NCBI RefSeq assembly: GCF_000007985.2 | Contig: NC_002939.5 | Span: 3,510,001 to 3,542,000, forward strand | Direction of reading: 5' to 3' | DNA: 32,000 nt | Source: Geobacter sulfurreducens PCA | Lineage (GTDB): Bacteria > Desulfobacterota > Desulfuromonadia > Geobacterales > Geobacteraceae | In this document: positions 10,143 through 32,000 of the stretch, piece by piece | Layout: each line of letters starts with the position of its first letter | How positions within the stretch are numbered: position 1 is the first letter of the stretch | The notes under the pieces: model-generated | The model's database searches: none | Told to the model about the DNA's origin: nothing | Seen by the model: only the letters and a program-made list of their open reading frames with translations | Program-made: the position numbers and the translations under genes

Positions 10143-10781
10143 CTACTTGACGTGACAGGTGAGACAGAGGGCGCTGCGGTAATCCTCCACCGCCAGATGC
10201 ATGGGGCGAGGATTGAGCATGTTGTGGCAGGTAAGGCAACTTACGGTGCCGTCAAAGAGCATGAGCGACTGTTCCACCAGGGCCGGGTCCCTGAAGCCGC
10301 GTCCCGATGCGGCGACCTGGGCATAATTCATCCCCATGGGATGGGTTTTCATGGGGGAAGCGGTCTGAACGCTCTGGGCCGTGAACCCGCCGGTCGACAC
10401 GCGAGTTATCCGCTGTGCCGCCTCCACCGGCGGCGCGCTGACACCATCGTGGCAGCCGAGACAGGCAGTGGTGATGGTATCGGTACGGGAGGCGACCGGC
10501 TCATGGTAGCCGGCGTCGAGCAGAGTTCCGAAAATGGCGAAACCCTCGCTCTCGTCTTCAACGGCGTCAACCGCTGCCGTCCGGGTGGAGTAAGAGGCAT
10601 CGGCAGCCGTGGCAACCATGCCGATATAGCCGGCCCGCATCTCGGGGTCGACCAGTTGGGTCGAGAAGGTGCAGACGCCCCGGCTGATAGCAGCCTCGGC
10701 AGCAATGGAACCGGCAGCAACCAGCGCGAAGGCTGAAATCAGACTGACCAGGTGACGTAGTGTTCCGCTCGACCAGACCAT
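10143..10781 (-). CDS. Secreted triheme c-type cytochrome
   Basis: Three CXXCH motifs (CLGCH, CLTCH, CLTCH). Start chosen at ATG 10781 (MVWSSGTLRHLVSLISAFALVAAGSIAAEA, a signal peptide), with GGAGGAG 6-7 nt upstream. The listed ORF extends 12 codons further. Confidence 0.85.
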   Translation of the reverse strand: MVWSSGTLRHLVSLISAFALVAAGSIAAEAAISRGVCTFSTQLVDPEMRAGYIGMVATAADASYSTRTAAVDAVEDESEGFAIFGTLLDAGYHEPVASRTDTITTACLGCHDGVSAPPVEAAQRITRVSTGGFTAQSVQTASPMKTHPMGMNYAQVAASGRGFRDPALVEQSLMLFDGTVSCLTCHNMLNPRPMHLAVEDYRSALCLTCHVK

Positions 10782-11269
10782 GGGGGACTCCTCCGTGAAA
10801 TGCCTGCAATGGACCACATTACAAGGGGAGTGCCGATTCTTTAATTACTGCAAATTTTGTTTTAACAATTTGAAATCATTACAATTTAAAACCCTGACCA
10901 CTCCTCCCCTCGACCTCGTCATTTCACATATTACTGTTCAACGATTGAACAGCTGATCCGAGAACAGAAACAACAGCCCCCAGAGCCCCTGTTTTTCAGC
11001 ATCTCGGAATGGCCGGACAAATTGTGCAATTTGTGAACATTTTGTATAAAAAATTCTAATTAATATTTCAAACTATTCGGAATTCCTTATTATTAAGATT
11101 CGTTATGTTCGGATAAATAATTTTATGCTTGCTCTTTACTGCTGTTTTTTGTTGTATGAGGTTAAAGCATCATAACAAAAGACTAACACAGGCTATTTAA
11201 TGGACACATGGCCGGCACCGACCGGCACTGAAACCACCCGCAACAGGACGTTGAGGGAAGGGGGTGGCA

Positions 11270-12466
11270 ATGACAAGGCCGAGCATCATGCGCAGACGAG
11301 CCGCGCGGTACGACCGGAAGGTCCCCCTGTGGATCTGCGGTGACACCATGGAGAGTTTCCGCTCCATGTCACTCAACATTTCTTCTCACGGTGTATTCTG
11401 CCCGGTTCCCCGGGGGGTCGACATCAATGACCGGGTCATGGTGATCGTGGGAGTACCCTTTGCGGAGGGAGATGCGGAGGGGGTCGAATGCGAAGGGGTT
11501 GTGGTCCGCACGGAACCGGCACCAACCACTCTAGGCGCCGCCATCCAGTACGCAGCCATCAATTTCCGCAACGTCCCCCGCGAATCAGCCTACCTGATCC
11601 GCGACTATCTGACCGGCTCCCAGCTGCGGTGCGACGAGCAGCGGAAACCGGAACTCCGCCGGCACCCCGAGATGCCCCCGGTCTGCTGCGACGTGCCCTG
11701 CGTAGATCGTGACACCGTTGTCCAGCAGCACCGCCAGCGCACCGAACGGATGGCATTTCTGCGGGACGTGGCCTCGCGCTTGGCTCCCGCGATCAAGGAC
11801 CGACTCGCCGGTGTGTCCGGCGCGCTTCAGATCCTCTCGGAAGAGACGCTCCCCCCCTCCGTTCCCGACGGCATCTACCGCGACATTTTCGAAGAGATAG
11901 CAGCCCTTGACAAACTGGCCGACACCCTGGCCCGCTACCACCGGCCGAGTCTCCCCCTGTTCAGCTCGACCAAACTTGAGCCGGTTGTGGAACGGGCACT
12001 GGAGACGGTGAAGGAAGTGCTGCAGAGCAAGGACATCGAGATACGGCTGCATCCGGGTGCCGATCTCCCCATTATTCAAGCCGATGAGGTACTGTTGACC
12101 CAGGCATTCGCCGCCCTGTTCGAAAGCGCGGCTGACACCATGAGCCGTGGCATGCTCACGGTGCAGTTCTGCTCGGGAACTCCCCGGTGCGACTGCCCGG
12201 AATGCGCGTGCGAGAAGGGCGCCAACTGCATTAACGAACACGTGAGCGTTCTGATCAGCGATGGGGGGACGGGCACGGCGCCGTTTTCTTTCGATCGGGC
12301 GCTGACCCTGTTTCCTGCCGTGAGCGGAGCCTGTTGCGGCAACGGACTCCCCTTTGCCCACCAGGTTATTGACCAGCACGAGGGATTTCTTTACGTGGCC
12401 AGCAGTCAAGCGAGCGGCTCAATCTTCGTGGTCGAGCTGCCCCGTTATCAGAGCGAGGTATGCTGA
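11270..12466 (+). CDS. Cytoplasmic PilZ-domain protein fused to a degenerate histidine-kinase-like (DHp plus HATPase_c-like) module
   Basis: PilZ c-di-GMP motifs RxxxR (RRAAR) and NxSxxG (NISSHG) lie about 22 aa apart. A DHp-like segment ERMAFLRDVASRLAPAI has Ser where the H-box His is expected. The ATPase-like region has a G1-like DGGTG and a G2-like GNGLPF but no obvious N-box Asn. No transmembrane segment is visible. ATG 11270 is preceded by GAGGGAAGGGGG. Confidence 0.75.
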   Translation: MTRPSIMRRRAARYDRKVPLWICGDTMESFRSMSLNISSHGVFCPVPRGVDINDRVMVIVGVPFAEGDAEGVECEGVVVRTEPAPTTLGAAIQYAAINFRNVPRESAYLIRDYLTGSQLRCDEQRKPELRRHPEMPPVCCDVPCVDRDTVVQQHRQRTERMAFLRDVASRLAPAIKDRLAGVSGALQILSEETLPPSVPDGIYRDIFEEIAALDKLADTLARYHRPSLPLFSSTKLEPVVERALETVKEVLQSKDIEIRLHPGADLPIIQADEVLLTQAFAALFESAADTMSRGMLTVQFCSGTPRCDCPECACEKGANCINEHVSVLISDGGTGTAPFSFDRALTLFPAVSGACCGNGLPFAHQVIDQHEGFLYVASSQASGSIFVVELPRYQSEVC

Positions 12467-12468
12467 CA

Positions 12469-13974
12469 ATGAACAGTCACCGGATTCTGGTAGTCGACGA
12501 TGAAAAGCTCATCTCGTGGTCCATTTCCACCATGCTCGAAAAGGCGGGGCACAGCGTTGCCACGGCCGCATCGGGGACCGAGGCGCTCCAGAAGTTCCAG
12601 AATTTCCGCCCCGAGGTCGTATTGCTCGACATCAGTCTTCCCGACATGAGCGGACTTGAGATCCTCGCCCGGGTCAAGGAAGAGAACGAGGACGTTACGG
12701 TCATCATGATTACCGCCAACTCCAACGCGGACGAGGCGGTGACAGCCTTCCAGCGCGGCGCCGACGACTTTTTCGGCAAGCCGTTCTGCCTGGAAACCCT
12801 GCGTCACGTGGTTGACAAGGCCCTGGAGCGGATGAAGCTCAAAAAAGAGGTGGATATCTTCAGGCGCGAACGACGCAAGAAGGGAGATTTCGACCAGCTG
12901 GTGGGGCGTTCCTCCAAAATGGTGGAGGTATTCAAGCTGATCAACGTTTGTTCCCGCACCGATGCAAAGACAGTCCTGATAACCGGTGAGAGCGGTACCG
13001 GCAAAGAGCTGGTGGCCCGCGCCGTCCATCTGCACAGTGCCCGCTCGGACCGGCCCTTCATCGAAGTCAACTGTGCCGCAATCCCGGAAAACCTTCTGGA
13101 AAACGAGCTGTTCGGTCATGAAAAGGGCGCCTTCACCGATGCGTCCCGCAAGCAGAAGGGTATTTTCGAGCTGGCCGAGGGGGGAACGGTCTTCCTGGAT
13201 GAAATCGGCGACATGCCGCTGCAGATGCAGGCCAAGCTTTTGAAAGTAATGGAGACCAAGCGGTTCCGGCGCCTGGGGGGGGAAGACGACGTGGAGGCCG
13301 ACGTACGGATCATCGCCGCCACCAACCAGAACCTGCCCAAGATGGTGGCAGACGGCGGGTTCAGGGGCGACCTCTTCTTCCGCCTGAACGTCATGAACAT
13401 CCGCCTGCCTCCGCTCAGAGAGCGGAGCGAGGATATCCCGACCCTGGTAAGCTATTTCATCCGGCGGCTCAACGACGAGTACGGCCGCTCGGTGGAGGGG
13501 ATCAGCGATGACGCGCTGGCCACGCTGACCGGGCACAACTGGCCGGGCAACGTGCGCGAATTGCGCAACTCCGTTGAACGGGCAATGATGCTGGAGCCGT
13601 CCAGAACCCTCAGCCTTGGCTGTTTTACCGACGATTTCCAGTACGGTGGAGGGGCCGCCGAATCTTCACCGGTCCCGGCTGGCTCGATCGCCAGCGATGC
13701 GCCGGGGACCCTTTCCATCCGGCTCCCCTCCGACGGGCTCTCCATCGAAGAGGTAGAAAAACAGCTCATCATCCTGGCCCTGGAGCGGACCGGCGGCAAC
13801 CAGACCAAGGCCGCCCAGTACCTCAAAATGACCCGCGACACGCTGCGTTACCGGATGAAAAAGTTCGGCCTCTCGGAAAGCGGCTGGCAAGACGACGCCG
13901 GTGACGACAAGGAGGGGGAACTGGGCGTGCCCAGACGGACTGAACGGCCGACCACCACGTGGCGCACGCTCTGA
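12469..13974 (+). CDS. Sigma54-dependent response regulator (NtrC family: receiver, AAA+ and Fis-type HTH domains)
   Basis: Receiver residues are intact (VVDDE, LLDISLPD, MITAN, GKPF). Walker A GESGTGKE and Walker B FLDEIGDM are present. The sigma54-contact loop is a GAFTDA variant of GAFTGA. C-terminal HTH QTKAAQYLKMTRDTLRYRMKKFGL. Start at ATG 12469 (GAGG 10 nt upstream); ATG 12460, which overlaps the upstream stop, is an alternative. Confidence 0.9.
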   Translation: MNSHRILVVDDEKLISWSISTMLEKAGHSVATAASGTEALQKFQNFRPEVVLLDISLPDMSGLEILARVKEENEDVTVIMITANSNADEAVTAFQRGADDFFGKPFCLETLRHVVDKALERMKLKKEVDIFRRERRKKGDFDQLVGRSSKMVEVFKLINVCSRTDAKTVLITGESGTGKELVARAVHLHSARSDRPFIEVNCAAIPENLLENELFGHEKGAFTDASRKQKGIFELAEGGTVFLDEIGDMPLQMQAKLLKVMETKRFRRLGGEDDVEADVRIIAATNQNLPKMVADGGFRGDLFFRLNVMNIRLPPLRERSEDIPTLVSYFIRRLNDEYGRSVEGISDDALATLTGHNWPGNVRELRNSVERAMMLEPSRTLSLGCFTDDFQYGGGAAESSPVPAGSIASDAPGTLSIRLPSDGLSIEEVEKQLIILALERTGGNQTKAAQYLKMTRDTLRYRMKKFGLSESGWQDDAGDDKEGELGVPRRTERPTTTWRTL

Positions 13975-13983: not shown

Positions 13984-15426
13984 ATGTTCCGCCTGCTTTT
14001 TGCCATAACCATCCTGCTGGCCCTGTCTCTGCCAGGAACAGCCCTGGCGCTCACCTGCACCATCAAGGGGTGCCACCCGTTCCTGCAGGACCTGAAGAAC
14101 CTCCACGCGCCGGTCAAGGAGGGGAAATGTCTTTCCTGCCACGTTCAGAAGGAAGAGATGCATCCCTATCCGGGACTGAAGGCGTTCGAGCTGAAGGCGA
14201 AAGGAGTCGACCTCTGCTACCTCTGCCATGACAAGCTGGCCATGGGCCCCGTGGTCCACGGGCCGGTCAGGGACGGCGACTGCACCGCCTGTCACCGCTA
14301 TCACGGGGCTTCCGGCCCCAAGCTCCTTGACATGGGCGAGGACCAGACGGCGTTCTGCACCGGCTGTCACGACGAGGGCGAGTTCCGGCGCCACTATCAG
14401 CACGGGCCGGCAGCGGTCGGCGACTGTACGAGCTGTCACACCCACCACAGCTCCACGGAGAAAAAGCTCCTCAAGGAGCAATCCCGACAACTCTGCCTCT
14501 CCTGCCATAATGACTTCGCCCAGACCATGGCTAAGGCACCCCGGGTCCACCCGCCGGTGAGCAACGATGCCTGCACCTCGTGCCATAACCCGCACAGCTC
14601 GGCAAGCCAGTTCGTACTTAAGGAAAAGATGCCCGACCTCTGCTATGGCTGCCATTCGGCCATGGCCACCAAGGTCCCGAACGTCAAGGTGCCCCACAAG
14701 CCCATCAGCCAGGCCAAGAGCTGCGGCAGCTGCCACTCGGCCCACTTCTCCCCGGCCAAGGGGCTGCTCGCCGTGGACCAGAAGAATCTCTGCCTCGGAT
14801 GCCACGGTCAGGACGGCCTCCACTCAAGCAAAGTATTCCGGGAGTATTCGGGACTGCCGCTGGTAAACATGAAAAAAGCCCTGGACAAAAAATCCCAGCT
14901 ACACGGCCCTATCAACGATGGTGCCTGCGCCGCCTGCCACTCGCCCCACGGCAGCGACAATTTCCGCATGCTGGTCAAGAGCTACCCGGCTCCCTTCTAC
15001 GTGCCGTACAAGGAAGGGCTCTACGACCTCTGCTTTTCGTGTCACGACAAGAGCATGCTCAAGTATCCCGACACCACGCTCTATACCAACTTCCGCAACG
15101 GCAAGCAGAACCTCCATTACCTCCACGTGAGCGACAAGCGCAAGGGAAGGACCTGCCGGGCCTGCCACGACGCCCACGCCGTCAACGGCCGGAAGCTGAT
15201 CGGCGCCGATGGGGCCGTGTTCGGCAAATGGAAGATCCCGACCCGATTCAAGACCACGGCCACGGGCGGGAGCTGCGCCCCCGGCTGTCACCGGCAGTTG
15301 TCCTACGACCGTGAAAAGCCGGTTTCCTACACGCCCCAGAAAGAAGCCCCTAAAGACGCGACGAAAGAGGTCCCCCAGACACCACCCCCGACCAGCGACG
15401 CCGCTCCTTCCGGCCAAACGAAATAG
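13984..15426 (+). CDS. Periplasmic/secreted multiheme c-type cytochrome (13 CXXCH)
   Basis: Signal peptide MFRLLFAITILLALSLPGTALA. 13 CXXCH motifs in repeated H.P(V/I)..G.C..CH..H units, plus CTIKGCH and CAPGCH variants. Pro/Thr-rich C-terminal tail. It starts 9 nt after the regulator's stop. Confidence 0.9.
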   Translation: MFRLLFAITILLALSLPGTALALTCTIKGCHPFLQDLKNLHAPVKEGKCLSCHVQKEEMHPYPGLKAFELKAKGVDLCYLCHDKLAMGPVVHGPVRDGDCTACHRYHGASGPKLLDMGEDQTAFCTGCHDEGEFRRHYQHGPAAVGDCTSCHTHHSSTEKKLLKEQSRQLCLSCHNDFAQTMAKAPRVHPPVSNDACTSCHNPHSSASQFVLKEKMPDLCYGCHSAMATKVPNVKVPHKPISQAKSCGSCHSAHFSPAKGLLAVDQKNLCLGCHGQDGLHSSKVFREYSGLPLVNMKKALDKKSQLHGPINDGACAACHSPHGSDNFRMLVKSYPAPFYVPYKEGLYDLCFSCHDKSMLKYPDTTLYTNFRNGKQNLHYLHVSDKRKGRTCRACHDAHAVNGRKLIGADGAVFGKWKIPTRFKTTATGGSCAPGCHRQLSYDREKPVSYTPQKEAPKDATKEVPQTPPPTSDAAPSGQTK

Positions 15427-15657
15427 GTTTCTCTCCCGCCGTCGGACTGACTCCGCGCCAGCCCGGCCCCCCAGACAAGGGGCTGGGCTGGGCGATTTGC
15501 CTCAGCCTCCCCGCACCGCTCTGCGTGAATTGCCCCGTATTGCCCTGTCGCATGCCACCGCGAGATCCGTTTACACTTTTTCCGCCCTCGGCTTAAGCCA
15601 GATAACACGGGCACTTGAAAGCCGCCACCTGCCGTAACCCTGCCGCCCGCCGCAACT

Positions 15658-15674
15658 GGGGCATATTTACTGCA
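15658..15674 (+). promoter_or_regulatory. Candidate sigma54 promoter (GGGCAT-ATTTA-CTGCA) upstream of the protease gene
   Basis: GG at 15660-15661 and GC at 15672-15673 are separated by exactly 10 nt, matching GGCA..N..TGCA of TGGCAC-N5-TTGCA. An AT-rich tract follows. The element lies about 135 nt upstream of ATG 15810. Confidence 0.5.
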
Positions 15675-15809: not shown

Positions 15810-18800
15810 ATGAAACTGAGGCGATGTATCGCGTCGCTGGCGACCGTGGGGATGCTCGCCATGCTGTTGGTCCAGGCGGAGCCCCGACAGGTCACGGGCA
15901 GCGGCTATAGCGCGGAGACCGGCAAGAGACAGCGGCCGGCCCCCAAAGAATCCGGGTCGGCAGACAAGGCAATACGAAAGCGATGGCTCGTCCAGTTCAA
16001 CGGTCCGGTCCGGCCTGAGCAGCGACGGCAGTTGGAGGCGCTCGGCTGCCGTATCGGCGATTACATGCCCACGAATGCGTTTGTTGCGCTCATGGACGAC
16101 AAGGCGGCCAAAAGAGTTGCCCTTCTCTCATTCGTCGAGGACATCACCCGATTTGCACCGGCCGACAAACTGGTGGGCACGGCGCGGAAGGACCTGACGG
16201 CGGCACCGACGTCCGAGATCCGGATCCGGAAGGTGCTCCGGGTGGACGACCCCGCCGACCGGGCAGCGGTCATTGCCGCCACCCTGCGGGGAAATGGCCG
16301 GATACTGAACGTGGGTGCACGCACCATTACCGTGGAGGTACCGGAGGAGCTGCTCGCCCCCCTTGCCCAGCAGGAGGAGACAGCCTGGATCGGCGAGGTC
16401 GGGGAGTTGCGGCTGCACAACAGCGATGCTGCCTGGGTGGTACAGACCAATGAGGTCGATAATCGTACGATCTGGGAGAAGGGAATTACCGGCGCGGGGC
16501 AGATCGTCGGTATCGCCGACTCGGGGGTCGACTACGACATGCCCTGGTTCGCCGATCCGAACGGCGCTCTTCCCGGGCCGGGACACCGCAAGATCGTGGG
16601 GTACGACGCCACTCTGGGAGACAACCACGATGTGGCCGACGGCCACGGCACCCACATCGCCGGGACCATCTGCGGCGACCGGGGGCCCGGCATGCCCGGC
16701 AACGGCATTGCACCCGGCGCGCGCATCCACGTCCAGGACCTGGTCGGCACCGACGGCACGCTGACCGGCAGCCTGGAACTGGAAACCGTGCTGAAAAAAG
16801 CCTATGACAGCGGAGCCCGGATTTTCAACGGTAGTTGGGGGGTCGATAGCGGGAACTACGACGCCCTCGCCGCGGCCCTTGACGACTTTTCCTGGCGGCA
16901 CAAAGATTTCCTGGCCGTGTTCGCCAACGGCAACGGCGGCCCGGCGGAGCAGACGGCAACCAGTCCGGCCATAGCCAAGAACGCCACCAGCGTAGTGGCA
17001 ACCGGCAACGGAACCGATGCCGCCACGGTCAGCGCCGAAAGCAGTGTCGGCCAGGCTCCGGATGGCCGTGCCAATCCGTCGGTGGGCGCTCCGGGCCAGG
17101 GTGTGGTCTCGGCTCGCTCCGACGGCCTTCTCGGCAGCGGCAACAGCGGCACCATGGCCATGTCGGGCACCTCGGTGGCAGCGGCGGTCACCTCGGGAGC
17201 AGCCGCGCTCATCCGCCAGTACTTTACCGACGGCTTCTTCCCCACCGGCAGCCCTGTCGCCACCAACAAGCTGCAGCCCTCGGCAGCACTGCTGAAGGCA
17301 GTCCTCGTGAACAGCGCCGAAGCGCTCCTCTCGGACGACCCCGGCGACTCGTGCCCCTCGAAGAGGGGCGGCTGGGGGCGCCCCAAACTGATCAACACCC
17401 TCTTTTTCAACGGTGACAGCCACTCCCTGGAAGTAGTCGACGGGGGTACAGGGCTGGAAACCGACGGCGTCTGGCAGCGGCTCTACTTCTCCCCCGGCGG
17501 CAGAAGGCTCAAGATCACACTGGCCTGGACCGACGCCCCGGCGGCACCCGGTGCCACGTCCCCTCTCACCAATGACCTGAATCTGGTGGTTGTCGCACCG
17601 GACGGAACGACCTACCTGGGCAATGATCTGAACTGTTCCCACGGCGACTATGAATCACGGACCGGCGGTTTCTCCGACAGGGTCAACGTTGAAGAGCAGG
17701 TGGTCATCAAGCGGCCCGTGGCCGGCACCTACCTGGTCAAGGTGATCGGCGCCAGCATTCCGGTGGGTCCCCAGCCCTTCGCTCTGGTAATGACCGGGGT
17801 CACCGGGGTCACCTCGGACGGCCGGATCGCCCTGACCAACAGCACTAACGGCACCCTGGAGGCGCCGGGACAGGTGTCGGTCATGGTGACCGACCGGGAT
17901 ATCAACCGCGATGCCTCAGCGATCGAGACCATGACGGTGGACCTGCTCGGCGAGACCGAGAGCAACCCGGAGCAGGTGGTCCTCACCGAAACCGGCCCCA
18001 ATACCGGGACCTTCACCGGCACCTGCCGGATCGCACTCGGCGGCACCGCCATCCATGACAACGGTGCGCTGGAAGCGCGCCATGGCGAGACGATCAGCGC
18101 CCGCTATACCGATGAAATCAACCTGAGCGGCTATCCCCGCCTCGTGAGCGTGTCGGCCCGGATTGTCGACAGCGTGCCGCCGACGATCTCGGCGGTTGGC
18201 GTCGGAGCCCAGCTCTCCGAAACCTCGGCGACCGTAGCCTGGACCACCGACGAACCCGCAGACTCGAAGGTCAGCTACGGCTCTGACGGCTCCCTGGGTC
18301 TCAGTGTCATCGACGGAGCCTTTGTCTCGAACCATCTCCTGGCACTCTCAGGTCTGTCGGAAGGACAGGACTATTTCTTTTCCGTCACCTCATCCGACGC
18401 CGCCGGCAACGTCTCCACGGATACCAATGGCGGCAACAACTATACCTTCCGCACCGCCAGCCTCCCGCCGTCCCTGGAGGTCTTTTGCTCGGCGGAAAAC
18501 AACGAGACCTATCTCCCGACGGTCAGGGTCTTCGGCACCGCCACCGATCCGGCCGGAATCGACCGGGTGACGGTCAACGGCCAACCAGCCGTCTGGCGCG
18601 CCACCGATGGCTACTACGAGGCCACCGCCTCCCTGGTGCCCGGCAGCAACACCATTACCGTAATCGCGACGGATACGCTCAACAACCCGGCCGGGCAAAC
18701 CCTGACGGTCAACAGGACCCTGCCCCCCTTTGATCTGCTCGTGACGTCGGTCGTCTCTACCACGAACCTCCTGCCAAGCTCGGCCATCAGGGTGGACGGG

Positions 18801-22142: not shown

Positions 22143-22158
22143 TGGCACCGGCGTTGCT
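22143..22158 (+). promoter_or_regulatory. Consensus sigma54 promoter TGGCAC-CGGCG-TTGCT
   Basis: TGGCAC at 22143-22148 and TTGC at 22154-22157 are an exact match to TGGCAC-N5-TTGC. The element is immediately preceded by an ~80-nt very AT-rich tract (22060-22140) and lies about 150 nt upstream of the tetraheme cytochrome start. Confidence 0.8.
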
Positions 22159-23103: not shown

Positions 23104-23119
23104 CGGCACTACTGTTGCA
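23104..23119 (+). promoter_or_regulatory. Candidate sigma54 promoter CGGCAC-TACTG-TTGCA, with an overlapping weaker copy at 23093-23108
   Basis: GG at 23105-23106 and GC at 23117-23118 with a 10-nt gap; only the first T of the consensus is missing. It is part of a direct repeat CCGGCACTA x2 (23092-23100, 23103-23111). Confidence 0.4.
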
Positions 23120-23123
23120 ACAG

Positions 23124-23157
23124 AAAAGGCCGCTGCCTTGTCGGGCAGCGGCCTTTT
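23124..23157 (+). terminator. Rho-independent terminator directly after the tetraheme cytochrome gene
   Basis: Stem AAAAGGCCGCTGCC (23124-23137) / GGCAGCGGCCTTTT (23144-23157) with a 6-nt loop. The 10-bp GC core is followed by TTTT. Confidence 0.8.
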
Positions 23158-23239
23158 CACCAACACAATCATATAAAAACCGTAATAATACGAATTTACA
23201 ACTGGTTATCATCCTCCACCCTATTCCGAGGAGGTTTTC

Positions 23240-24499: not shown

Positions 24500-25087
24500 A
24501 TGAGAAGGTCTGTTGCTGTGATATGGCTGTTGCGGGTGGGGCTGGGTGCCCTTGCACTCTGCCTGACCGCCTGCGACCCCGTGGTGCGCCACAAGACCCT
24601 GTCCACCATCTTCGACGGGGTGCCGACGCTGCCGCCCACTGACGAGTACTGCGTCGACTTCGCCCGGCAGTATCACCAGGAACAGTTGGGACTGGCCAAA
24701 GTGGAGGTCAAGGAGGAAGGACCCAAGGGGTCCACCCACCTGCCCTACGGCGAGAAACGCTGCGCTGACTGTCACGGCTCCGACAAGGACAAGAGCGGCG
24801 GGTTGGTGGTGCCCAAGCAGGAACTCTGCTTCAAGTGCCATCCCGGTTTCCTCAAGGGCGCATTCCAGCATGGGCCTGCAGCCGTGGGTGATTGCCTCGC
24901 CTGCCATCTCCCCCACGCCGCGCCGAACCCGGACCTGCTCGGAGCGCCGCGGGACCAGATATGCGGCCGCTGCCACACGGAAGAACGGCTTACCAACCGG
25001 ATGCACGACCGCCTGAAGGACAGCAAGATCGCCTGCGTCGAGTGCCATGACCCCCATGCCAGCGACGCCCGCTATCTGCTGCGCTAG
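24500..25087 (+). CDS. Pentaheme c-type cytochrome lipoprotein
   Basis: Lipobox LCLTAC. Five CXXCH motifs (CADCH, CFKCH, CLACH, CGRCH, CVECH) in 195 aa. Confidence 0.85.
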   Translation: MRRSVAVIWLLRVGLGALALCLTACDPVVRHKTLSTIFDGVPTLPPTDEYCVDFARQYHQEQLGLAKVEVKEEGPKGSTHLPYGEKRCADCHGSDKDKSGGLVVPKQELCFKCHPGFLKGAFQHGPAAVGDCLACHLPHAAPNPDLLGAPRDQICGRCHTEERLTNRMHDRLKDSKIACVECHDPHASDARYLLR

Positions 25088-25096: not shown

Positions 25097-27130
25097 ATGG
25101 AACTATGGGGAAATGCAGCGAGGGGCCCGATAGGCGGTGGCATACGCATTGCCGCCGCGCTCATGGTGCTGCTCGTGCTGTCCTTCCCCTGCCCGGCCGA
25201 CGCGGCACGGCTGACGCTGTTGCGCTTCGGCAAGCTGACCCAGAACATCAGCCTGGGGTATGAATTCGATCAGCAGTCGAGCCAAAGCGACGGGGGAACC
25301 AGCCTTGACTCCACGTCCCACCGCTTCGACGAGCGTTATCGGGCCGCGTTCCGCTATGCTGTCCTCTCTCCGCGATTGTTGAACGGTTCCGTCAGGGTCG
25401 GCGCCAACCTCGAACAGGAAAACGAAGAAACCACCAACCGTTCCGCCTCCGACGGTTCGAGCCATCAATTGGAGTACAACGTAAACGGCACCTGGTTCCA
25501 GCGCAGTTGGTATCCGGTCACCTTCTTTACCTATCAGCAGTACAACAGGGTGCGCCAGGCATTCACTCCCTCCTACGACATCAAGACCGACGGCGTCGGC
25601 GCGACCCTGAGCCTCCAGAACAACTACGTACCCACCCTGTTCAACTACAGTCTCCGCTCGAACGCTACGTCGGGGGCAGGAGCCGACACGGAGAACACCA
25701 TCGAAGCCTTTCTTCTGTCGTTCTCCCACAACTACCGGAGCCTGTCCAACGCAACGCTGTCGCTGTCCCTCAACAAGAGTGACACCGTCACCAAGGGAGA
25801 GGCAACGACAACCTCTTCGGACACGCGCAGCGTCGTGTTCAAGCATCTGCTCAATCTGGGGACCACCGATCTCACCCGCACCCTCAACACCCTCGCCAGC
25901 TACGTCGACGAGACCGGCACGGTCCGGAATCACACCCTGGAGTTGAACGAAAGTCTCGACTGGTGGGTGGGCAAGGCGCTCCAAACCCACGCAATCTACA
26001 TTCACCGCGACCGCACCTTTGCCGACAGAAAAACGGTGGAGGACAGCGGGGTCGGCTGGATTCAGCATCGCCTCTATAAGAGCCTCACTACCCGCCTCGA
26101 CCTGCGGGGCAAGAACACCACCTTCGACAACAACGGCTCCATCACCGAGATCGGTGGCGGAGGAACCATCGACTATGAAAAAAAGCTGCCCGAAGAGAGC
26201 AGCCTGCTGGTGGGGGTGGGCTACAATTACGGGATCACCGACAACAAACTGGGCGCCGATGCCCTGCCGGTAATCAATGAACAGACCACGGTGCCGGACC
26301 TTCCCCCCTACGAACTTGTGATGGGACAATTGGACGTTAACCCCGACAGCATCGTCGTCCGCAACCGGGAACGGACGTTCATCTACACCCCCGGCACCGA
26401 TTACCAGGTTGTGACCGATGGCCGCGAGACCCGGATCGTCTTTCCGCAGATCCCCACGGTCGGCCCGTTTCCGATCACCGCGGGAAGCATCCTCTCCATC
26501 GATTACGAATACCGGATTGCCCCCTCCATCACCTATAGCCAGAGCGTCTATACCGGCTACGCTACCCTGTCGCTCTTTCAGGAGCGGCACCGCTTGTTCG
26601 TGCGAATCACCGACAGCAGCCAGGACGTCCTGGAAAACCGCGGGGCCGGGTCCCCTCAGCTCAGCGACTACCGGACTCTCAACCTGGGGTTTGAAAGCCG
26701 TCGGGAGTTCCTGAGTTACGGTGCTTCGTACCTCCGCATCGATTCGGACATCAACCCGAGCCAGACCTTCGAGGGCTACTCGCGCTACGTGCGCTCCTTC
26801 GGCCGGGACCTGGTGCGACTGAACCTTCGGGAGCGCTATACCCTTCATGACAACGGGGATGACCGCACGGAGTCCAGCTACACCAATACCCTCAACCTGA
26901 CGGGGGAATACCTCCGTCCGGTCACCAACTGGGCGACCATGCGCCTGATCGGGGACTACCTGATGGTGCGGGGACGTTCTCCCAGCGATGAAGTGAGTGC
27001 TTCGGTCGAGCTCAATGCCCAGTTCGGACGAACCGAACTGTCCCTCTTCTCGGAGCTGGCCTGGAAGTTTTTGCCCCAGAACACGAACCGCAGCACTGCC
27101 ATCAGGCTGCAGATCAGCAGGTCGTTCTAA
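25097..27130 (+). CDS. Large outer-membrane beta-barrel protein (porin-like), 677 aa
   Basis: N-terminal hydrophobic signal ending PADA-ARL. Long runs of alternating polar/aromatic residues rich in Y/T/N/S/R. C-terminal ...RLQISRSF with a terminal Phe, as in the OMP beta-signal. It starts 9 nt after the preceding cytochrome gene. The start codon is uncertain because no clear Shine-Dalgarno is present. Confidence 0.7.
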   Translation: MELWGNAARGPIGGGIRIAAALMVLLVLSFPCPADAARLTLLRFGKLTQNISLGYEFDQQSSQSDGGTSLDSTSHRFDERYRAAFRYAVLSPRLLNGSVRVGANLEQENEETTNRSASDGSSHQLEYNVNGTWFQRSWYPVTFFTYQQYNRVRQAFTPSYDIKTDGVGATLSLQNNYVPTLFNYSLRSNATSGAGADTENTIEAFLLSFSHNYRSLSNATLSLSLNKSDTVTKGEATTTSSDTRSVVFKHLLNLGTTDLTRTLNTLASYVDETGTVRNHTLELNESLDWWVGKALQTHAIYIHRDRTFADRKTVEDSGVGWIQHRLYKSLTTRLDLRGKNTTFDNNGSITEIGGGGTIDYEKKLPEESSLLVGVGYNYGITDNKLGADALPVINEQTTVPDLPPYELVMGQLDVNPDSIVVRNRERTFIYTPGTDYQVVTDGRETRIVFPQIPTVGPFPITAGSILSIDYEYRIAPSITYSQSVYTGYATLSLFQERHRLFVRITDSSQDVLENRGAGSPQLSDYRTLNLGFESRREFLSYGASYLRIDSDINPSQTFEGYSRYVRSFGRDLVRLNLRERYTLHDNGDDRTESSYTNTLNLTGEYLRPVTNWATMRLIGDYLMVRGRSPSDEVSASVELNAQFGRTELSLFSELAWKFLPQNTNRSTAIRLQISRSF

Positions 27131-27154: not shown

Positions 27155-28252
27155 ATGGAGCAATCAGTCCCGGCACGCGGCACATCCCCTGCACGCCGGC
27201 TTGCGACCGCGGCCAGGCACTGCCTGGTCCTGGCCGTGGCGAGCATCCTGGCCGCCTGCACGACCATTACGGCCGTAACACCGAACGAACCGGAGCAACG
27301 GCTGGTCTGGCCGGGACCGCCGCTCCAGCCGCGCATCGAGTGGGTGCGCGAAGTCTATAACCAGAAGGGGCTCGGGGTATCTCCCGGGTTCTGGGGCAGG
27401 ATCGCGCGGTTCGTACTGGGCGAGAAGGAGGAGCGATTCATTCGTCCCCACGGAATTCTGGCCGATGAACAGATCTTCGCCTTGGTCGATTCGGGCGCCG
27501 GGCGAGTGCACCTGATTGATCTGAAGCGAGGGACCTATCGGCTGCTGCCGGAGGAAGGCAAGACCCCGATGGTCTCACCCATCGGGATAGCCCGGGACAG
27601 CCGGGGAGCGATCTATGTAACCGACTCCGGCACCGGCCTGATCCACCGCTTTTCCGACGACGGCGACTCTTTCGTCGCGCTGGACCTCCGCCCGCTTCAC
27701 CGCCCCACCGGCATCGCCTTCAACCCGGTAACGGGCCTGCTGTACGTGGCGGAAACCGGCGCCCACCGGATCGTAGCCTTCGATTCGGCGGGCAAGGAAA
27801 CCCTGCGCATTGGCGGGAGCGGCATGGAGCCCGGCGCCTTCAACTTCCCCACCGACCTGGCCGTGATGGCCGATGGACGCCTTCTGGTAACCGACTCCCT
27901 CAACAGCCGGATTCAAATCTTCACGGCAGACGGGAAGCCGGCGGGAAGCTTCGGCGAGGCCGGGGATACTCCCGGTCGCTTCACCCGCCCCAAGGGGGTC
28001 GCAGTGGACAGCGAAGGGCATATCTACGTCTGCGACAGCCAGCAGGACATGGTTCAGATCTTCGACGAGACGGGCCGGCTGCTCCTGGCCTTCGGCGACA
28101 AGGGAAGCCTCCCCGGCCAGTTCTGGATGCCTTCCGGCATCCATATCGCCAATGACATGATCTATGTCTCCGATACGTATAACCAGCGGGTACAGGTCTT
28201 CCGCTACCTGAAGGAAGAGCCCTGGGGGCAGGACCCCCACACCCCCGACTAA
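27155..28252 (+). CDS. NHL-repeat six-bladed beta-propeller lipoprotein
   Basis: Lipobox SILAAC. Six recognisable blades (PHGILAD, PIGIARDSRGAIYVTD, PTGIAFNPVTGLLYVAE, PTDLAVMADGRLLVTD, PKGVAVDSEGHIYVCD, PSGIHIANDMIYVSD). AAGGAG Shine-Dalgarno at 27144-27149. Confidence 0.85.
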   Translation: MEQSVPARGTSPARRLATAARHCLVLAVASILAACTTITAVTPNEPEQRLVWPGPPLQPRIEWVREVYNQKGLGVSPGFWGRIARFVLGEKEERFIRPHGILADEQIFALVDSGAGRVHLIDLKRGTYRLLPEEGKTPMVSPIGIARDSRGAIYVTDSGTGLIHRFSDDGDSFVALDLRPLHRPTGIAFNPVTGLLYVAETGAHRIVAFDSAGKETLRIGGSGMEPGAFNFPTDLAVMADGRLLVTDSLNSRIQIFTADGKPAGSFGEAGDTPGRFTRPKGVAVDSEGHIYVCDSQQDMVQIFDETGRLLLAFGDKGSLPGQFWMPSGIHIANDMIYVSDTYNQRVQVFRYLKEEPWGQDPHTPD

Positions 28253-28263: not shown

Positions 28264-29994
28264 ATGGCAGCACGACCCATGATAACGGCACTGGTCTTCT
28301 TCCTGGGAACGGCGGCCCCGGCGGCGGCCCTCTCTCCCTCCCTGAGCGTGACCGATTCTCACAACCGCCACAACCTGTCCGTAAGCGGCCCGGGGCTCAC
28401 CGGTGCGACCCGCGCCTCCACCGAAGAGCGGGTCTGCATTTTCTGCCATACGCCCCACCACGCCACGAGCATAACCCCCCTCTGGAGCCGCGAGTTGTCC
28501 AGCGCGCTCTACACCCCCTACGACTCGTCGACCCTCAAGGCAATCCAGAAACCGGGCCAGCCTACCGGCGCATCCCGTCTTTGCCTGGGGTGTCATGACG
28601 GCACCATCGCCCCCGGCATGCTCTCGGGGGGCAAGATGATCGCGGGGCTGCCGACCCTGCCCACGAATGTGCGCTCGAACCTGTCCACTGATCTCTCCGA
28701 CGACCATCCCATTTCCTTTCCCTATGCCGGATCCATCTCGGTCGCCGCCGTGCTCCGGCTGCCGGCCGAACTGCCGCCCGAAATCTCGCTCGAAGACGGC
28801 AGAATCGAATGCACCAGCTGCCACGATCCCCACAAGGACCGCTACCCTCCGGCTGATCATCCGCAGAAATCGGGGAAATTCCTGGTGCTCGACAACAACA
28901 ATTACTCGGCCCTCTGCACCGCCTGCCACAGCCGCGCCGGGCTCACGGAGGGCGCCCACTACCTGCCGGGCGATCCCTGCGAAAGCTGTCACCAGGTCCA
29001 CCGGGCCGATCAGCCGGCACGGCTGCTGAAGGGAGCCAATGTGCAGGAGACCTGCGTCCTCACCTGCCACAACGGAACCGGCACGGTGGAAACATCCGGG
29101 ACCGACATCCGCTCCGCATCGGTCTTCGGCAAAGCTCATCAGACCGGCCGGCTCGTTCTTTCCGGCAGGCACGACGCCGACGAGAACCCCCTCGACTTCG
29201 AGCCGTCACAGCCGCACGTGGAGTGCGTCGATTGCCACAATCCCTGCATCACCCGTCATGAATCAACACCTCTTGCTTCGCCGCCGACGCTGAACGGCCG
29301 GCTCGTAGGGGTTACCATCGCCAAGTCGCCCGACGGCATCAAGACTTACGCCGACAGCGAATATGCCATCTGCTACAAATGCCACGGCGACCGGAGTTTC
29401 GTGCCCCCGGCCGTGCCCCGCAGGGTCCAGACCGGTGACCAGAGCCTCCGCTTTGCCCAGGAAAACCCCTCGTATCACCCGGTATCGGCGCCGGGCAAAG
29501 GGATGAGCGTGCCAAGCCTGCGCTTTGAAATCGTCGGGTTCAGGCCCGCTCGGACCCTCTCCATCTCAAGCCTCATCTACTGCACCGATTGCCATTCGAG
29601 CAACAAGGGCAGCAAGGTGGGGGGGAGCGGCGCATCCGGACCCCACGGCTCCGATTACCAGCCAATCCTGATGGACCGCTACGAGCACGACACCTATCCC
29701 CTCGCCTATGCCGAGAGCAACTACTCCCTCTGCTTCCGTTGCCATGACCAGACGATTCTGCTGGACCCGGGCCGATCGGCGTTTCCGCTCCACCAGTCCC
29801 ACCTGGTCAACCATCAGGTACCCTGCTCAGTCTGCCACGACCCCCATGGCGTTCCCCTGGTTCTGGGGGGCACCACGGCTGCAAACAGCCACCTGATCAA
29901 CTTCGATACCCGCTTCGTCACCACCGGCAGCTATGACTCTCCGGGTCGCAGCTGCACCGTGAGTTGCCACTCGGCCAACCCGAGAACCTACTGA
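28264..29994 (+). CDS. Secreted multiheme c-type cytochrome (10 CXXCH plus 2 CX3CH-like motifs)
   Basis: Signal peptide MAARPMITALVFFLGTAAPAAA. Ten CXXCH motifs plus CVLTCH and CTVSCH. The first ~200 aa parallel the tetraheme protein at 22297. ATG 28264 is preceded by AAAGGTGG; GTG 28255 is an alternative start. Confidence 0.85.
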   Translation: MAARPMITALVFFLGTAAPAAALSPSLSVTDSHNRHNLSVSGPGLTGATRASTEERVCIFCHTPHHATSITPLWSRELSSALYTPYDSSTLKAIQKPGQPTGASRLCLGCHDGTIAPGMLSGGKMIAGLPTLPTNVRSNLSTDLSDDHPISFPYAGSISVAAVLRLPAELPPEISLEDGRIECTSCHDPHKDRYPPADHPQKSGKFLVLDNNNYSALCTACHSRAGLTEGAHYLPGDPCESCHQVHRADQPARLLKGANVQETCVLTCHNGTGTVETSGTDIRSASVFGKAHQTGRLVLSGRHDADENPLDFEPSQPHVECVDCHNPCITRHESTPLASPPTLNGRLVGVTIAKSPDGIKTYADSEYAICYKCHGDRSFVPPAVPRRVQTGDQSLRFAQENPSYHPVSAPGKGMSVPSLRFEIVGFRPARTLSISSLIYCTDCHSSNKGSKVGGSGASGPHGSDYQPILMDRYEHDTYPLAYAESNYSLCFRCHDQTILLDPGRSAFPLHQSHLVNHQVPCSVCHDPHGVPLVLGGTTAANSHLINFDTRFVTTGSYDSPGRSCTVSCHSANPRTY

Positions 29995-29999: not shown

Positions 30000-30028
30000 C
30001 CCCCAGAATCGCCCGGCGGTTCTGGGGG
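30000..30028 (+). terminator. Strong GC hairpin (terminator-like, weak U tract) after the 10-heme cytochrome gene
   Basis: CCCCCAGAATCGCC (30000-30013) pairs with GGCGGTTCTGGGGG (30015-30028) with one G-U wobble, followed by ATTT. Confidence 0.5.
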
Positions 30029-30188
30029 ATTTCCCCCGTACCCCCCAGAAACATAGGGTGAATATACCCCACTCCCCCCCGTTTTCCTGTCCATTGGCTC
30101 TTCACCATTAGTCCACAAGATTTACGAATATTTTATATATCAAGACGTTTCGCGGTTTTATCACTTTTTTGCTCATATTTATTCGCCG

Positions 30189-30204
30189 AGGCATGATAGG
30201 TGCA
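30189..30204 (+). promoter_or_regulatory. Candidate sigma54 promoter AGGCAT-GATAG-GTGCA
   Basis: GG at 30190-30191 and GC at 30202-30203 with a 10-nt gap, the same GGCAT..TGCA form as at 15658. Preceded by an AT-rich tract containing TATCAAGACGTTT (an IHF-like near match, 30138-30150). It lies about 217 nt upstream of ATG 30421. Confidence 0.4.
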
Positions 30205-30420
30205 ATTTCATATGTGCTCTCTTCCCCAGACCGGCAGTTATCGGACTACTTCCCGGCCGTCCCCCCAGACGCCCGATGAAGCTCCGGTGCTGGCCGGAAC
30301 CATTTGCACGGCGGATTCGGGACACTGACACCCGCCACCGGCATCGTAACGCGCCCTCTCGACACGGGACCACCGTGCGGCAGGGTGCGCGAACCCAACC
30401 ATACGCGAGGAGAAAGGTAT

Positions 30421-32000
30421 ATGAAGAGAAACCGGAGACACCCGGCCGCCGGCCCGGTGCTGATCTCGGGAGCCGCACTGATAGTGGGGCTTGCCAGCGG
30501 ATCGGCAACGGCTGCCTATAACGCGGCCCACAAGGACATCGTCCTGAAGAATGCGGCGGGATCTGCCATCAAGGCAACCGACACCGTCAACGCCTTCAGC
30601 ATCAAGAACACCTGCTTCGGCACCGCCGGCTGCCATGGCGACACCAATGCCGGCGGCACCCTCAGATTCAGCTATGACGACATCGAGCGCCACTCCTACC
30701 ATGCCCAGCTCGGTGCCAATGAAATTCGCGGCTGGAACCCCTGGAACCCCGACTCTGCCGACGCCTTCCGCAAAGGAGCCGGACCGGTGGGTAAAAACTG
30801 GGTCCAGAGCCCCGGCCACGTGGGCTCATGGTGACCGCCTTCCGCTCGCCAGTTGGCGAGACTGTACAATGACGGCGCAGGAACCGCCTACGACTCGGCA
30901 AATGCCAAGTTTATCGACAACCTCTTCGGCTGGACCAACTACCTCGCGGGCACGAAAAACCTGAACGGCGCCTTCGAGCCGTTCAACTTCGGCTCGGCTG
31001 CCGGATTCAAGAGCAAGGTTGACAACTCCCTTGCGGGCGAAATGCGCGACTGCGGTGAGTGCCACGTCGGCGGCGGTCTGATGGAGTACATGAGCAATAC
31101 CATTCCGACCAGCGACTACACCGGCGGCGTCAGCTACGACCCCGCCAAGCGCACCTCCTATCGCGATGTGGTCTTCGGCGGCCTCTTCACCGCCTTCAAC
31201 GCCCTCATCGACGTCTTCAACCCCGATCCTGCCCGGCGCGGCGACGTGGTCATCAACGACTACGCCCAGACCGGCGTCATGGAGATGGATTGCCTCATTT
31301 GCCACTTTGAAGGTTATGACTGGGAGAAGCGGAAGGAAGCCGTCCGCAAAGGTGAATTCGATGCCTCCCGCGCCCTCGGCTCCGGCCTGGCCACCTCGGC
31401 GGCTAGCGGCGTCCAGGTAACCTACGACACTAACCTGGTCAAGACAAATGCCAGCGGCGATCTGGTTGTGGACCTCTCCGCCAAGCTGAGCCCGGTCCCG
31501 CCGGCCGACAACTGCGCCTCTTGCCACCTGTCCCAGTACAACGTCGACTGGAAGAAGCGCGGCGACATGTGGATCGAAGGCACTGAAGCCCACTACGGCA
31601 TCGGCTGCATGGGCTGCCACCAGCGCAAAGACGCGGCGAGTCCCACGGTCGGCACGAGCGGCCTGGTGAGCAGCACCACGCTCGGTCTCTGCGACCCGGC
31701 CAAGGGTGGCGCGTCCCCCTTCGACGCCATGTGGAACAAGCTCGACAAGTCTCAGTTCAAAGAGTGCGTGGACTGCCACGCTCCCACGAGCACGCCGACC
31801 TACGACACCTACAATGCGCCCAACCCGGTTTCAGCTCACGCAATCAAAGGGCTGACCGACAAGATCGCCTTTGATAAGGACGGCAACTCGGTAAGCCACA
31901 TCGAACTGATCGACTGCTCCGCCTGCCATATCAGGAAGTCGGGCTTCACCGGCGGCGCCTTCGTCGACGGCACCGGCGCCGATGAAGAAGGCCGCCTGGC
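30421..32000 (+). CDS. Large secreted multiheme c-type cytochrome interrupted by one in-frame TGA (30832-30834); 3' end outside the window
   Basis: ATG 30421 with GAGGAGAAAGG Shine-Dalgarno and signal peptide MKRNRRHPAAGPVLISGAALIVGLASGSATA. The same frame (frame 1) has no other stop from 30421 to 32000 apart from the TGA at codon 138. Downstream of the TGA are six CXXCH motifs (CGECH, CLICH, CASCH, CMGCH, CVDCH, CSACH) and no start codon or Shine-Dalgarno for a separate gene. Confidence 0.7.
30845..30860 (+). other. SECIS-like hairpin 10 nt downstream of the in-frame TGA
   Basis: CUCGCC (30845-30850), loop AGUU, GGCGAG (30855-30860): a perfect 6-bp GC-rich stem. The loop starts 16 nt after the UGA and has G at its second position. 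Confidence 0.35.

Follow-up and report, generated by a model that had tools for sequence, protein, structure and literature searches.

Next to the obg gene of Geobacter sulfurreducens PCA lies a cluster of cytochrome, β-propeller, outer-membrane barrel, protease and regulatory genes, GSU3214–GSU3228. The species is a model organism for extracellular electron transfer, yet this cluster has been noticed only in passing in expression studies. The analysis described here covers 32,000 nucleotides of the chromosome (NC_002939.5, positions 3,510,001 to 3,542,000 of the forward strand), hereafter the window, and coordinates given without a locus name count from its first letter. Exact protein look-up identified Obg as AAR36604 (GSU3213) and the cluster proteins GSU3217–3228 as AAR36608–36619, with the regulator, cytochromes, NHL proteins and barrel at AAR36608–36616 and the last two pieces at AAR36618 and AAR36619. 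This numbering matches the published tags, which comprise a two-component system (GSU3216–3217) and the cytochromes GSU3218, 3221, 3223, 3226 and 3228 (PMC4070692). Strain CP072789 shows 14 differences from the window over 14,846 bases. The comparisons presented below point to a conserved set of genes inside the cluster, built around a barrel of an unnamed family and partly paralogous to the locus of the cytochrome OmcE.

The central genes are all encoded on the forward strand. GSU3218 (13984–15426) specifies a cytochrome with 13 CXXCH motifs, a signal peptide and no lipobox, which is predicted to be periplasmic, and GSU3221 (22297–23091) a tetrahaem cytochrome. The five genes that follow are separated by gaps of 9–24 nt and are therefore regarded as one operon. 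They encode an NHL β-propeller lipoprotein (GSU3222, 23240–24478, lipobox ISGC), a 5-haem lipoprotein cytochrome (GSU3223, 24500–25087, lipobox LTAC), a 677-amino acid outer-membrane β-barrel with a signal peptide and a C-terminal phenylalanine (GSU3224, 25097–27130), a further NHL β-propeller lipoprotein (GSU3225, 27155–28252, lipobox LAAC), and a cytochrome with 10 CXXCH motifs that has a signal peptide but lacks a lipobox (GSU3226, 28264–29994). With a barrel, a lipoprotein cytochrome and a signal-peptide cytochrome, the operon has the architecture of a conduit. The cluster ends in a very large cytochrome, GSU3227+GSU3228, which is read here as one gene running from 30421 past the window end at 32000 (signal peptide and one haem motif ahead of an in-frame TGA, at least six CXXCH motifs behind it). 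An earlier reading of the same DNA (the original prediction) had listed six c-type cytochrome genes, and their CXXCH counts of 3, 13, 4, 5, 10 and 6 do add up to the 41 claimed; the two propeller lipoproteins were recovered as well. Additional CX3-5CH variants occur in GSU3218, in GSU3226 and in the N-terminal piece of the last gene (GSU3227).

Related loci were fetched via the barrel or via the last cytochrome and are designated L001, L004, L005 and so on, with L010 as the closest relative. Genomes were scanned with a barrel pattern designed on a 12-sequence alignment, which gave four genome loci, the G. sulfurreducens genome not being among those returned; the 50-sequence alignment of the barrel was too diverse for pattern design, and an earlier pattern scan of genomes had given nothing. 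The order 13-haem cytochrome, NHL protein, 5-haem lipoprotein, barrel, NHL protein, 10-haem cytochrome recurs in these loci and is found in full in most of about 20, with the 4-haem gene as its immediate neighbour on one side or the other. The gene directly downstream of the 13-haem gene is the 4-haem gene in L011 and L016, and the first NHL gene in L004 and L005, among others. The full-order loci show almost no variation in the haem numbers 13, 5, 10 and 4. The genome-derived loci belong to a Desulfuromonas and a Geobacter metagenome-assembled genome (MAG) and to Geomonas oryzae, with variant forms in Verrucomicrobiota and Nitrospinota MAGs; the module is also present around two distant members of the barrel family and on eleven metagenome contigs no shorter than 9 kb, of which three carry variant forms. 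Judged from gene order, the conserved core is GSU3218, GSU3221 and GSU3222–3226, usually accompanied by a very large outer cytochrome, here GSU3227/3228.

The retention of this order in loci of several phyla agrees with the earlier view of an old rather than recently mobile module. The G+C content of the cluster is not distinct from that of the flank and shows no compositional break; as predicted, no tRNA is present in the window, and no transposase or integrase was seen among the open reading frames assigned and scanned there. A recently acquired island was considered and rejected, since the G+C content does not stand out and relatives have the locus in a syntenic position. In spite of this rejection, an integrase gene does lie near the cluster in L011.

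The barrel GSU3224 matched no family in Pfam or NCBIfam, and a word-indexed search retrieved only five relatives. A profile search of 1.84 billion representative proteins returned 1413 matches at E ≤ 1e-3, of which 947 had E ≤ 1e-10. Almost all matches were full length (640–690 amino acids). An AlphaFold model built from a six-sequence alignment was poor, with a predicted local distance difference test score (pLDDT) of 58.8 and meaningless structural matches. The model from the 50-sequence alignment reached a pLDDT of 89.6 and a predicted template modelling score (pTM) of 0.72, and is all-β, consisting of some 30 long strands plus a small insert around residues 400–465; MtrB, by comparison, has 26 strands. 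Foldseek searches with this model retrieved large outer-membrane barrels only, with TM-scores of 0.42 for MtrB (6r2q_B), the highest, and 0.35 for LptD. A confident all-β model combined with matches to large barrels alone indicates, at the level of a prediction, that GSU3224 is a large outer-membrane barrel, as first proposed, of an unnamed family; it falls in the MtrB-like size class and is not a member of the MtrB family. In strain CP010430, a DDE_Tnp_1 transposase gene lies inside the barrel gene (L008, 8146–9219), leaving a fragment of 178 amino acids.

Sequence searches against the PDB tie the cytochromes of the cluster to two known proteins. GSU3218 and GSU3223 match 6r2q_A (E 4e-14 and 4e-11, respectively), which is taken to be MtrA. 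Residues 31–265 of GSU3221 align with residues 18–232 of 7tfs_A (E 3.6e-17), and the N-terminal 135–200 residues of GSU3226 resemble the same chain (E 1.5e-16). The alignment of GSU3221 comprises CHTPH, CMSCHDG, NDHP, CxSCHxVH and CLxCHKK; all four haem motifs and several further histidines are aligned. Structure 7TFS is the OmcE filament, and the identity of its chain was checked through genomic context. The chain corresponds to G. sulfurreducens AAR33949, whose gene lies six genes after a 91-amino acid PpcA-like trihaem gene, past ResB, CcsA, two cytochromes and an NHL gene. This arrangement fits the interval from GSU0612 to GSU0618, and GSU0618 has been described as OmcE (PMC13194489), so that, by genomic context, 7tfs_A is taken to be GSU0618. 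GSU3221 is therefore a full-length OmcE homologue, a relationship overlooked in the original prediction.

The resemblance extends beyond a single cytochrome. Three protein types of the omcE locus have counterparts in the cluster: GSU0615 matches GSU3218 (E 3e-82), the NHL lipoprotein GSU0617 matches GSU3225 (E 5e-49), and OmcE matches GSU3221 (E 2.5e-21). By these similarities, the omcE locus is a reduced paralogue of the GSU3214–GSU3228 cluster. The 747-amino acid neighbour of omcE, GSU0619, went undetected by the barrel-family profile; its product (L014, 10878–13121) has a signal peptide and a C-terminal FF but matches no Pfam domain, and could itself be an outer-membrane barrel. The omcE gene is preceded, at a distance of 77 nt, by the sigma54-like element TGGCGTGCTGGTTGCA (L014, 9908–9923), which suggests that genes of the OmcE family could generally be sigma54-driven. 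Glycosyltransferase genes follow the cytochrome genes in L002 (14452–18797, including an oligosaccharyltransferase of the STT3/PglB type) and in L014 (13196–17828), and a link between these loci and glycosylation of surface cytochromes is possible.

The last gene of the cluster is interrupted in frame by a TGA at 30832–30834, a feature that had also been overlooked. Downstream of the TGA, the coding sequence carries c-type haem motifs and yet lacks both a start codon and a signal peptide of its own, the signal peptide being on the upstream piece, so that the downstream piece is not expected to work by itself; all 18 database homologues of the last cytochrome begin just after this point. The public records consulted treat the TGA as a stop and list the GSU3227 and GSU3228 pieces separately, at 137 and 991 amino acids. 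Reading through would give a product of 1135 amino acids (about 120 kDa) with PKD domains (as seen in L009), and the predicted selenocysteine (Sec) would be residue 138, ahead of seven CXXCH motifs and the PKD domains. Comparison of eight genes from six organisms or contigs, including a second G. sulfurreducens copy, placed the TGA at the same position in 8/8 with no other stop, preceded by W and followed by [PS]PS[AL]RQ; in GSU3227/3228 the context reads GHVGSW-U-PPSAR. The UGA is followed, 10 nt on, by a hairpin with a 6-bp stem (CUCGCC-AGUU-GGCGAG at 30845–30860 in the window) and AGUU, AGUG or AGGU as the loop. In the alignment of this hairpin, which resembles a selenocysteine insertion sequence (SECIS), 97.9% of the cells are paired, compensatory changes affect three of the six pairs, and covariation exceeds that of all 500 shuffles; folded as a single sequence, the hairpin is energetically unremarkable (z −0.6). 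The conserved TGA with its covarying hairpin is thus a probable selenocysteine codon.

A second split pair lies about 6 kb past the window end (L009, 19573–21098), after a divergent PAS/HisKA_3 kinase and a GerE-type regulator. It consists of 121 amino acids, a TGA and 1063 amino acids, with the context W-U-SPSLRQ and the hairpin TTCGCC-AGGT-GGCGAA; the first piece is recorded publicly as a 121-amino acid protein, and by AAR numbering the pair would be GSU3232+GSU3233. G. sulfurreducens makes the selenoprotein MccSep (PMC13510729), so the machinery for selenocysteine exists in this species. A stop-codon survey of 2007 found MccSep and not GSU3227/8, and literature searches for GSU3227, none of them aimed at its selenocysteine, found nothing. 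If the read-through is true, these proteins would be the second family of multihaem selenoproteins after MccSep, and the gene models of GSU3227/3228, of the presumed GSU3232/3233 and of their homologues would need correction.

It could be argued from this gene that the selenocysteine cytochromes are catalytic reductases of sulfur, selenium or another small redox substrate, with the barrel module feeding them electrons or admitting the substrate. The UGA, the motif W-U-[PS]PS[AL]RQ and the SECIS-like hairpin are conserved in eight genes, two such genes stand here in G. sulfurreducens, and selenocysteine is normally catalytic. Furthermore, MccSep, a polysulfide reducer with a similar G-U-P context, is encoded in a cluster once classed as a conduit. 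However, the large cytochrome downstream of the core in L005, L021 and L023 is not of the selenocysteine type, which makes the core module independent of the selenoprotein. PDB searches found no sequence similarity between the selenocysteine cytochrome and solved MccSep or other enzymes, and the reported induction is by iron-oxide minerals rather than sulfur. On balance, a substrate-reducing role for the whole system is held to be improbable.

The original prediction had placed a sigma54 −24/−12 element before each structural unit and read the set as a single regulon. A plain search for GG-N10-GC was uninformative; instead, all such sites in the 32 kb were scored against TGGCAC-N5-TTGCW. The element upstream of GSU3221, TGGCACCGGCGTTGCT (22143–22158, forward strand), is perfect at 11/11, and CGGCACTACTGTTGCA (23104–23119, forward strand), between the GSU3221 stop and its hairpin, scores 10/11; no other site in the 32 kb matches as well as these two, which both lie between genes. 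The other two, the weak GGGCATATTTACTGCA upstream of the protease gene (15659–15674, forward strand) and AGGCATGATAGGTGCA 216 nt before the ATG of GSU3227 (30189–30204, forward strand), reach only 8/11, a score attained 27 times inside coding sequence. A sigma54 element recurs 147–254 nt upstream of the GSU3221 orthologue in L010, L011, L005 and L001, which include Geomonas and Desulfuromonas, and a weaker match in L004 is 578 nt away from the start of that gene. Elements of the last cytochrome are found at matching distance in L010, L001 and L011, and the 23104 and 15659 sites recur only in L010. Transcription would be expected to start near 22169, 23130 and 30215. Support for an element before every unit is strong at 22143, good at 23104, moderate at 30189 and weak at 15659. 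The single regulon is only partly supported: the conserved GSU3221 promoter and, moderately, that of the last cytochrome speak for it, while the 23104 site confined to L010 and the chance-level protease site do not.

That strong hairpins close the units, as also predicted, was confirmed: their z values range from −4 to −8.6, and no shuffle folded as well. All are on the forward strand. A terminator-like hairpin at 15457–15493 (−34.4 kcal/mol, z −4.6) closes the GSU3216–3218 unit, and a terminator hairpin follows the protease gene at 21918–21955 (−30.8 kcal/mol, z −6.6). The hairpin after GSU3221, at 23123–23158 (−32 kcal/mol, z −8.6, with a short T tract), is a candidate terminator or attenuator ahead of the GSU3222–3226 operon. 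The last one lies after GSU3226 at 30000–30032 (−25.5 kcal/mol, z −4.1), and its 3´ arm overlaps the palindrome GGGGATTTCCCC. No Rfam family was found in the window and, therefore, no known riboswitch lies within the long leaders.

Upstream of the promoters, a palindrome with the consensus GGGGAWWTCCCC has four matches in the window against 0.55 expected. One copy, GTGGAAATCCCC (22012–22023), lies 131 nt upstream of the 22143 element, and another, GGGGATTTCCCC (30025–30036), 164 nt upstream of the 30189 element. In L010 and L011 (L010 14933; L011 6777, 6807 and 15037) the palindrome stands 120–165 nt upstream of sigma54 elements, and 176 nt upstream at the selenocysteine-cytochrome gene of L011. 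These placements make GGGGAWWTCCCC a candidate binding site of the NtrC-type activator GSU3217. Two further repeats were noted. The 9-mer ATTTACGAA has only two copies in the window (22043–22051 and 30120–30128), each between a palindrome and a sigma54 element; it is not claimed as a site, being a post-hoc observation on two copies that could be chance. The 9-mer CCCCCCAGA occurs six times (15467, 21957, 29999, 30041 and 30261 on the forward strand, 29862 on the reverse) against 0.83 expected, a count that no shuffle reached. Five of its copies are on the forward strand in intergenic regions of the cluster; it is also found in L010 and, once each on the minus strand, in L011 and L016, with none in the omcE locus or L012.

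The way in which GSU3221 is set apart bears on a different explanation, namely that the barrel and the propellers export and assemble rather than conduct, that is, that they secrete, fold or anchor GSU3221, and perhaps the large outer cytochromes, as a surface filament with no conduction across the membrane. As would suit an abundant structural subunit, GSU3221 is a single gene with its own strong, conserved promoter and a strong hairpin, it is homologous to OmcE, whose own locus likewise encodes an NHL lipoprotein. According to the account of Shen 2025 given in PMC13194489, the osc operon has been proposed to supply channel-like proteins and further accessory ones for the secretion and morphology of the OmcS nanowire. 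A barrel of about 30 strands is, moreover, large. Nevertheless, the two multihaem cytochromes of the operon, with their strictly conserved haem numbers, and an MtrA-like partner suit a conduit and not an exporter; no gene for an ATPase, a chaperone or a prolyl isomerase is present, and filament formation by GSU3221 is itself only hypothetical. An exporter of this kind is considered rather unlikely.

The remaining genes of the cluster are less widely shared. GSU3217 (12460–13974, forward strand) is an NtrC-type response regulator and sigma54 activator with receiver, AAA+ and HTH_8 domains (Sigma54_activat, E 2.5e-69). Its loop reads GAFTDA, a variant of GAFTGA; the cluster-adjacent regulators of L011 and L012 have GAFTDA and GSYTDA, respectively. 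The cluster has an adjoining NtrC-type regulator in L011, L012 and L016, and a nearby one in L004 and L018. The preceding gene, GSU3216 (11264–12466, forward strand), encodes, by domain matches, a PilZ domain fused to an AtoS/ZraS-like kinase core. Both c-di-GMP motifs of the PilZ domain are present (RRxxxR and NxSxxG) and the ATP-binding boxes are intact, while the canonical H-box histidine is absent (VASRLAP), so that the protein may be an atypical signalling protein or a pseudo-kinase. No PilZ-kinase gene was seen beside the orthologous clusters of L011 and L012, and only weak kinase-type matches lie upstream in L005, L019 and L021. GSU3216 appears to be a later addition, largely confined to the G. 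sulfurreducens lineage.

GSU3219 (15810–21902, forward strand) encodes a secreted S8 peptidase of 2030 amino acids counted from the ATG at 15810 (Peptidase_S8, 1.4e-39). It contains nine CARDB stretches, and its DSG, HGT and GTSVA motifs fit the D/H/S triad pattern. Outside G. sulfurreducens strains, the protease is encoded in the closest relative, L010, and in none of the other orthologous loci. As a core component it was therefore rejected: the conserved system cannot depend on a protein that no other orthologous cluster encodes. The protease, the PilZ-kinase-like protein and the NtrC-type activator are present as originally predicted. The first two had been regarded as signature parts of the cluster, a view that must be given up, since both are missing from all more distant orthologous loci and are lineage-specific insertions. 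For metagenome surveys, this makes the protease unsuitable as a marker of the system.

At the obg end, the change of content noted earlier at about 10.1 kb was confirmed, with an upstream side made up entirely of housekeeping genes (LolA, DUF520, RimO-like, iPGM, RlmH, RsfS, NadD, ProA, ProB and Obg). In the gap between the RimO-like gene and gpmI (2503–3206), the only candidate is a doubtful minus-strand reading frame of 185 amino acids. GSU3214 (10143–10817, reverse strand), convergent with obg, encodes a small c-type cytochrome with three CXXCH motifs. A similar gene stands beside the cluster only in L011 and L016 among the orthologous loci, and a PDB sequence search with the protein gave nothing useful. 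Lower expression in a csrA-mutant biofilm and induction on Fe and Mn oxides have been reported for it.

Such patchy neighbours raise the question of whether there is one system at all, or merely unrelated cytochrome, protease and regulator genes lying side by side near obg. The absence of the protease elsewhere, the absence of GSU3216 from beside most loci and the restriction of GSU3214-like genes to L011 and L016 would all fit this, as would units with separate promoters and terminators. Against it stand the gene order and haem numbers of the core, kept across phyla, the promoter type and upstream palindrome that core genes share, and the co-induction of the cytochromes. An accidental neighbourhood is contradicted for the core genes and plausible only for GSU3214, GSU3216 and GSU3219; as an account of the whole cluster it is hardly credible.

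Expression data connect the cluster with minerals. It has been described that seven cytochromes of the region GSU3216–3233 are induced 2–8 fold by the conductive iron minerals hematite or magnetite (Kato 2013, PMC4070692); in the present reading, two of these seven are halves of one selenoprotein. GSU3218 has been linked to a mid-potential pathway, and GSU3228, 3232 and 3233 are changed in an ihfA-1 mutant (PMC7962754). Taken together, the anatomy, the shape of the barrel, which is closest to MtrB, the homology to MtrA and OmcE, the conservation, the regulation and the mineral-linked expression favour, with a probability of roughly 0.5, an outer-membrane system of the porin-cytochrome type, a paralogue of the omcE locus whose terminal components are OmcE-like and selenocysteine cytochromes.

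For the electron path, the location of the cytochromes, filament formation, selenium incorporation and dependence on the regulator, the following arrangement is proposed. GSU3218 would carry electrons across the periplasm, and GSU3226 and/or GSU3223, in or on the barrel, would pass them through the outer membrane, as MtrA does in MtrB. The two propeller lipoproteins would scaffold the complex. Outside the cell, the OmcE-like GSU3221 and the PKD-domain cytochromes, with selenocysteine incorporated at the TGA, would make the contact or be the terminal reductase. GSU3221 may form a polymer, for which the OmcE-like end of GSU3226 could be the nucleation point. GSU3221 and GSU3227/8 would be expressed from their sigma54 promoters, activated by the adjacent NtrC-type regulator, probably through the GGGGAWWTCCCC sites. 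The S8 protease and the PilZ-kinase would be later additions in the G. sulfurreducens lineage.

Several points weigh against this proposal. The barrel has no detectable homology to the MtrB/PioB family, and its structural match to MtrB reaches a TM-score of no more than 0.42; whether a cytochrome occupies its interior, and which one, is a guess. The insertion in the barrel gene of CP010430 implies that the system is dispensable in culture in that strain. In D. ferrophilus, whose clusters are likened to this one by description only, deletions of cytochromes in NHL clusters gave no Fe(III)-oxide phenotype. As to regulation, the sigma54 sites at 15659 and 30189 are, by sequence alone, no better than chance, and the canonical phosphorylation-box histidine is missing from GSU3216. 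Moreover, the start predicted from the 23104 site (about 23130) falls at the foot of the terminator-like hairpin, so that GSU3222–3226 may instead be expressed by partial read-through of an attenuator. Finally, no functional, deletion, biochemical or localisation study of the cluster proteins was found in the literature. To that extent the original description as an uncharacterised system stands, although the locus had already been reported as a co-induced cytochrome cluster (PMC4070692).

The elements that are new here are the conserved core order, the unnamed barrel family, the paralogy with OmcE and its locus, the grading of the sigma54 sites, the lineage-specific nature of protease and kinase, and the conserved TGA. 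A conserved core, a barrel family of about 1400 sequences and the omcE paralogy together make a defined, testable unit. It bears on open questions in the field, namely how OmcE-type cytochromes reach or connect to the surface and what role NHL propellers play beside cytochromes. A bolder extension, for which the odds are judged to be low, is that the conserved set is a previously undefined outer-membrane machine of several phyla that wires the periplasm to an OmcE-type polymer and nucleates it, and that in Geobacter and its relatives ends in a new family of multihaem selenocysteine cytochromes whose role is catalytic and not just conductive.

Among the known systems, MtrCAB and PioAB (6R2Q) share with the cluster a large barrel, a periplasmic cytochrome with paired CXXCH motifs and a lipoprotein cytochrome. 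They differ from it in family membership, as the cluster has no member of MtrB_PioB, DmsE or OmcA/MtrC and adds two NHL propellers. For the MtrA/DmsE family TIGR03508, GSU3218 scored 124.6 bits and GSU3226 43.7 bits against a cut-off of 192.2; for the OmcA/MtrC family TIGR03507, the sole match was GSU3218 with 42 bits against 209.3. Together with ExtN and ExtO, the only Ext models giving any hit, these scans of curated libraries stayed below their cut-offs, in line with the earlier statement that the composition departs from the familiar conduits.

The Geobacter porin-cytochrome conduits OmaB–OmbB–OmcB, ExtABCD and ExtEFG likewise combine a periplasmic multihaem cytochrome, a porin and a lipoprotein multihaem cytochrome in one operon (PMC9070056, PMC9769857). 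Unlike the cluster, they are described as having no propellers, no OmcE-like subunit and much smaller porins. Porins of these conduits have about 20 strands.

Propellers beside cytochromes are not peculiar to this locus, contrary to what had been supposed, given that the omcE locus, the Uet cluster and the D. ferrophilus clusters combine them too; NHL proteins next to cytochromes have been described for Uet, D. ferrophilus, omcS and G. metallireducens. By its description, the Uet cluster of Ca. Tenderia and Gallionella resembles the present one in its β-barrel UetC, its NHL proteins UetH and UetI, several multihaem cytochromes and a conserved order. It differs in its trihaem c7-type and undecahaem cytochromes, its cupredoxin and its prolyl isomerase, and it has been proposed to serve electron uptake. 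The D. ferrophilus clusters DFE_0448–0451 and DFE_0461–0465, widely detected in metagenomes through FeGenie models, are also described as multihaem cytochromes grouped with NHL propellers, whereas no porin has been reported in them.

Single components have parallels of their own. MccSep (GSU2937–2936, ExtKL) is, like GSU3227/8, a multihaem protein with an in-frame UGA, a SECIS-like hairpin and a comparable G/W-U-P context, and it was long annotated as two genes. In contrast, it has five haems, carries its selenocysteine near the C-terminal part (U325), is periplasmic and shows no sequence similarity to GSU3227/8. OzpA is an S8 protease that matures the neighbouring cytochrome OmcZ, which recalls the position of a subtilisin-family protease gene beside the outer-surface cytochrome genes here; GSU3219 is, however, far larger, with its CARDB stretches, and is missing from other orthologous clusters.

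The omcE locus (GSU0615–GSU0619) belongs to the same comparison. It has one propeller only, is without the 5-haem lipoprotein, the 10-haem gene and the selenocysteine cytochrome, and its GSU0619 is not detectably related to the GSU3224 family. With the GSU3214–GSU3228 cluster it nevertheless shares paralogues of GSU3218, GSU3225 and GSU3221, and OmcE itself resembles the N-terminus of GSU3226 as well.

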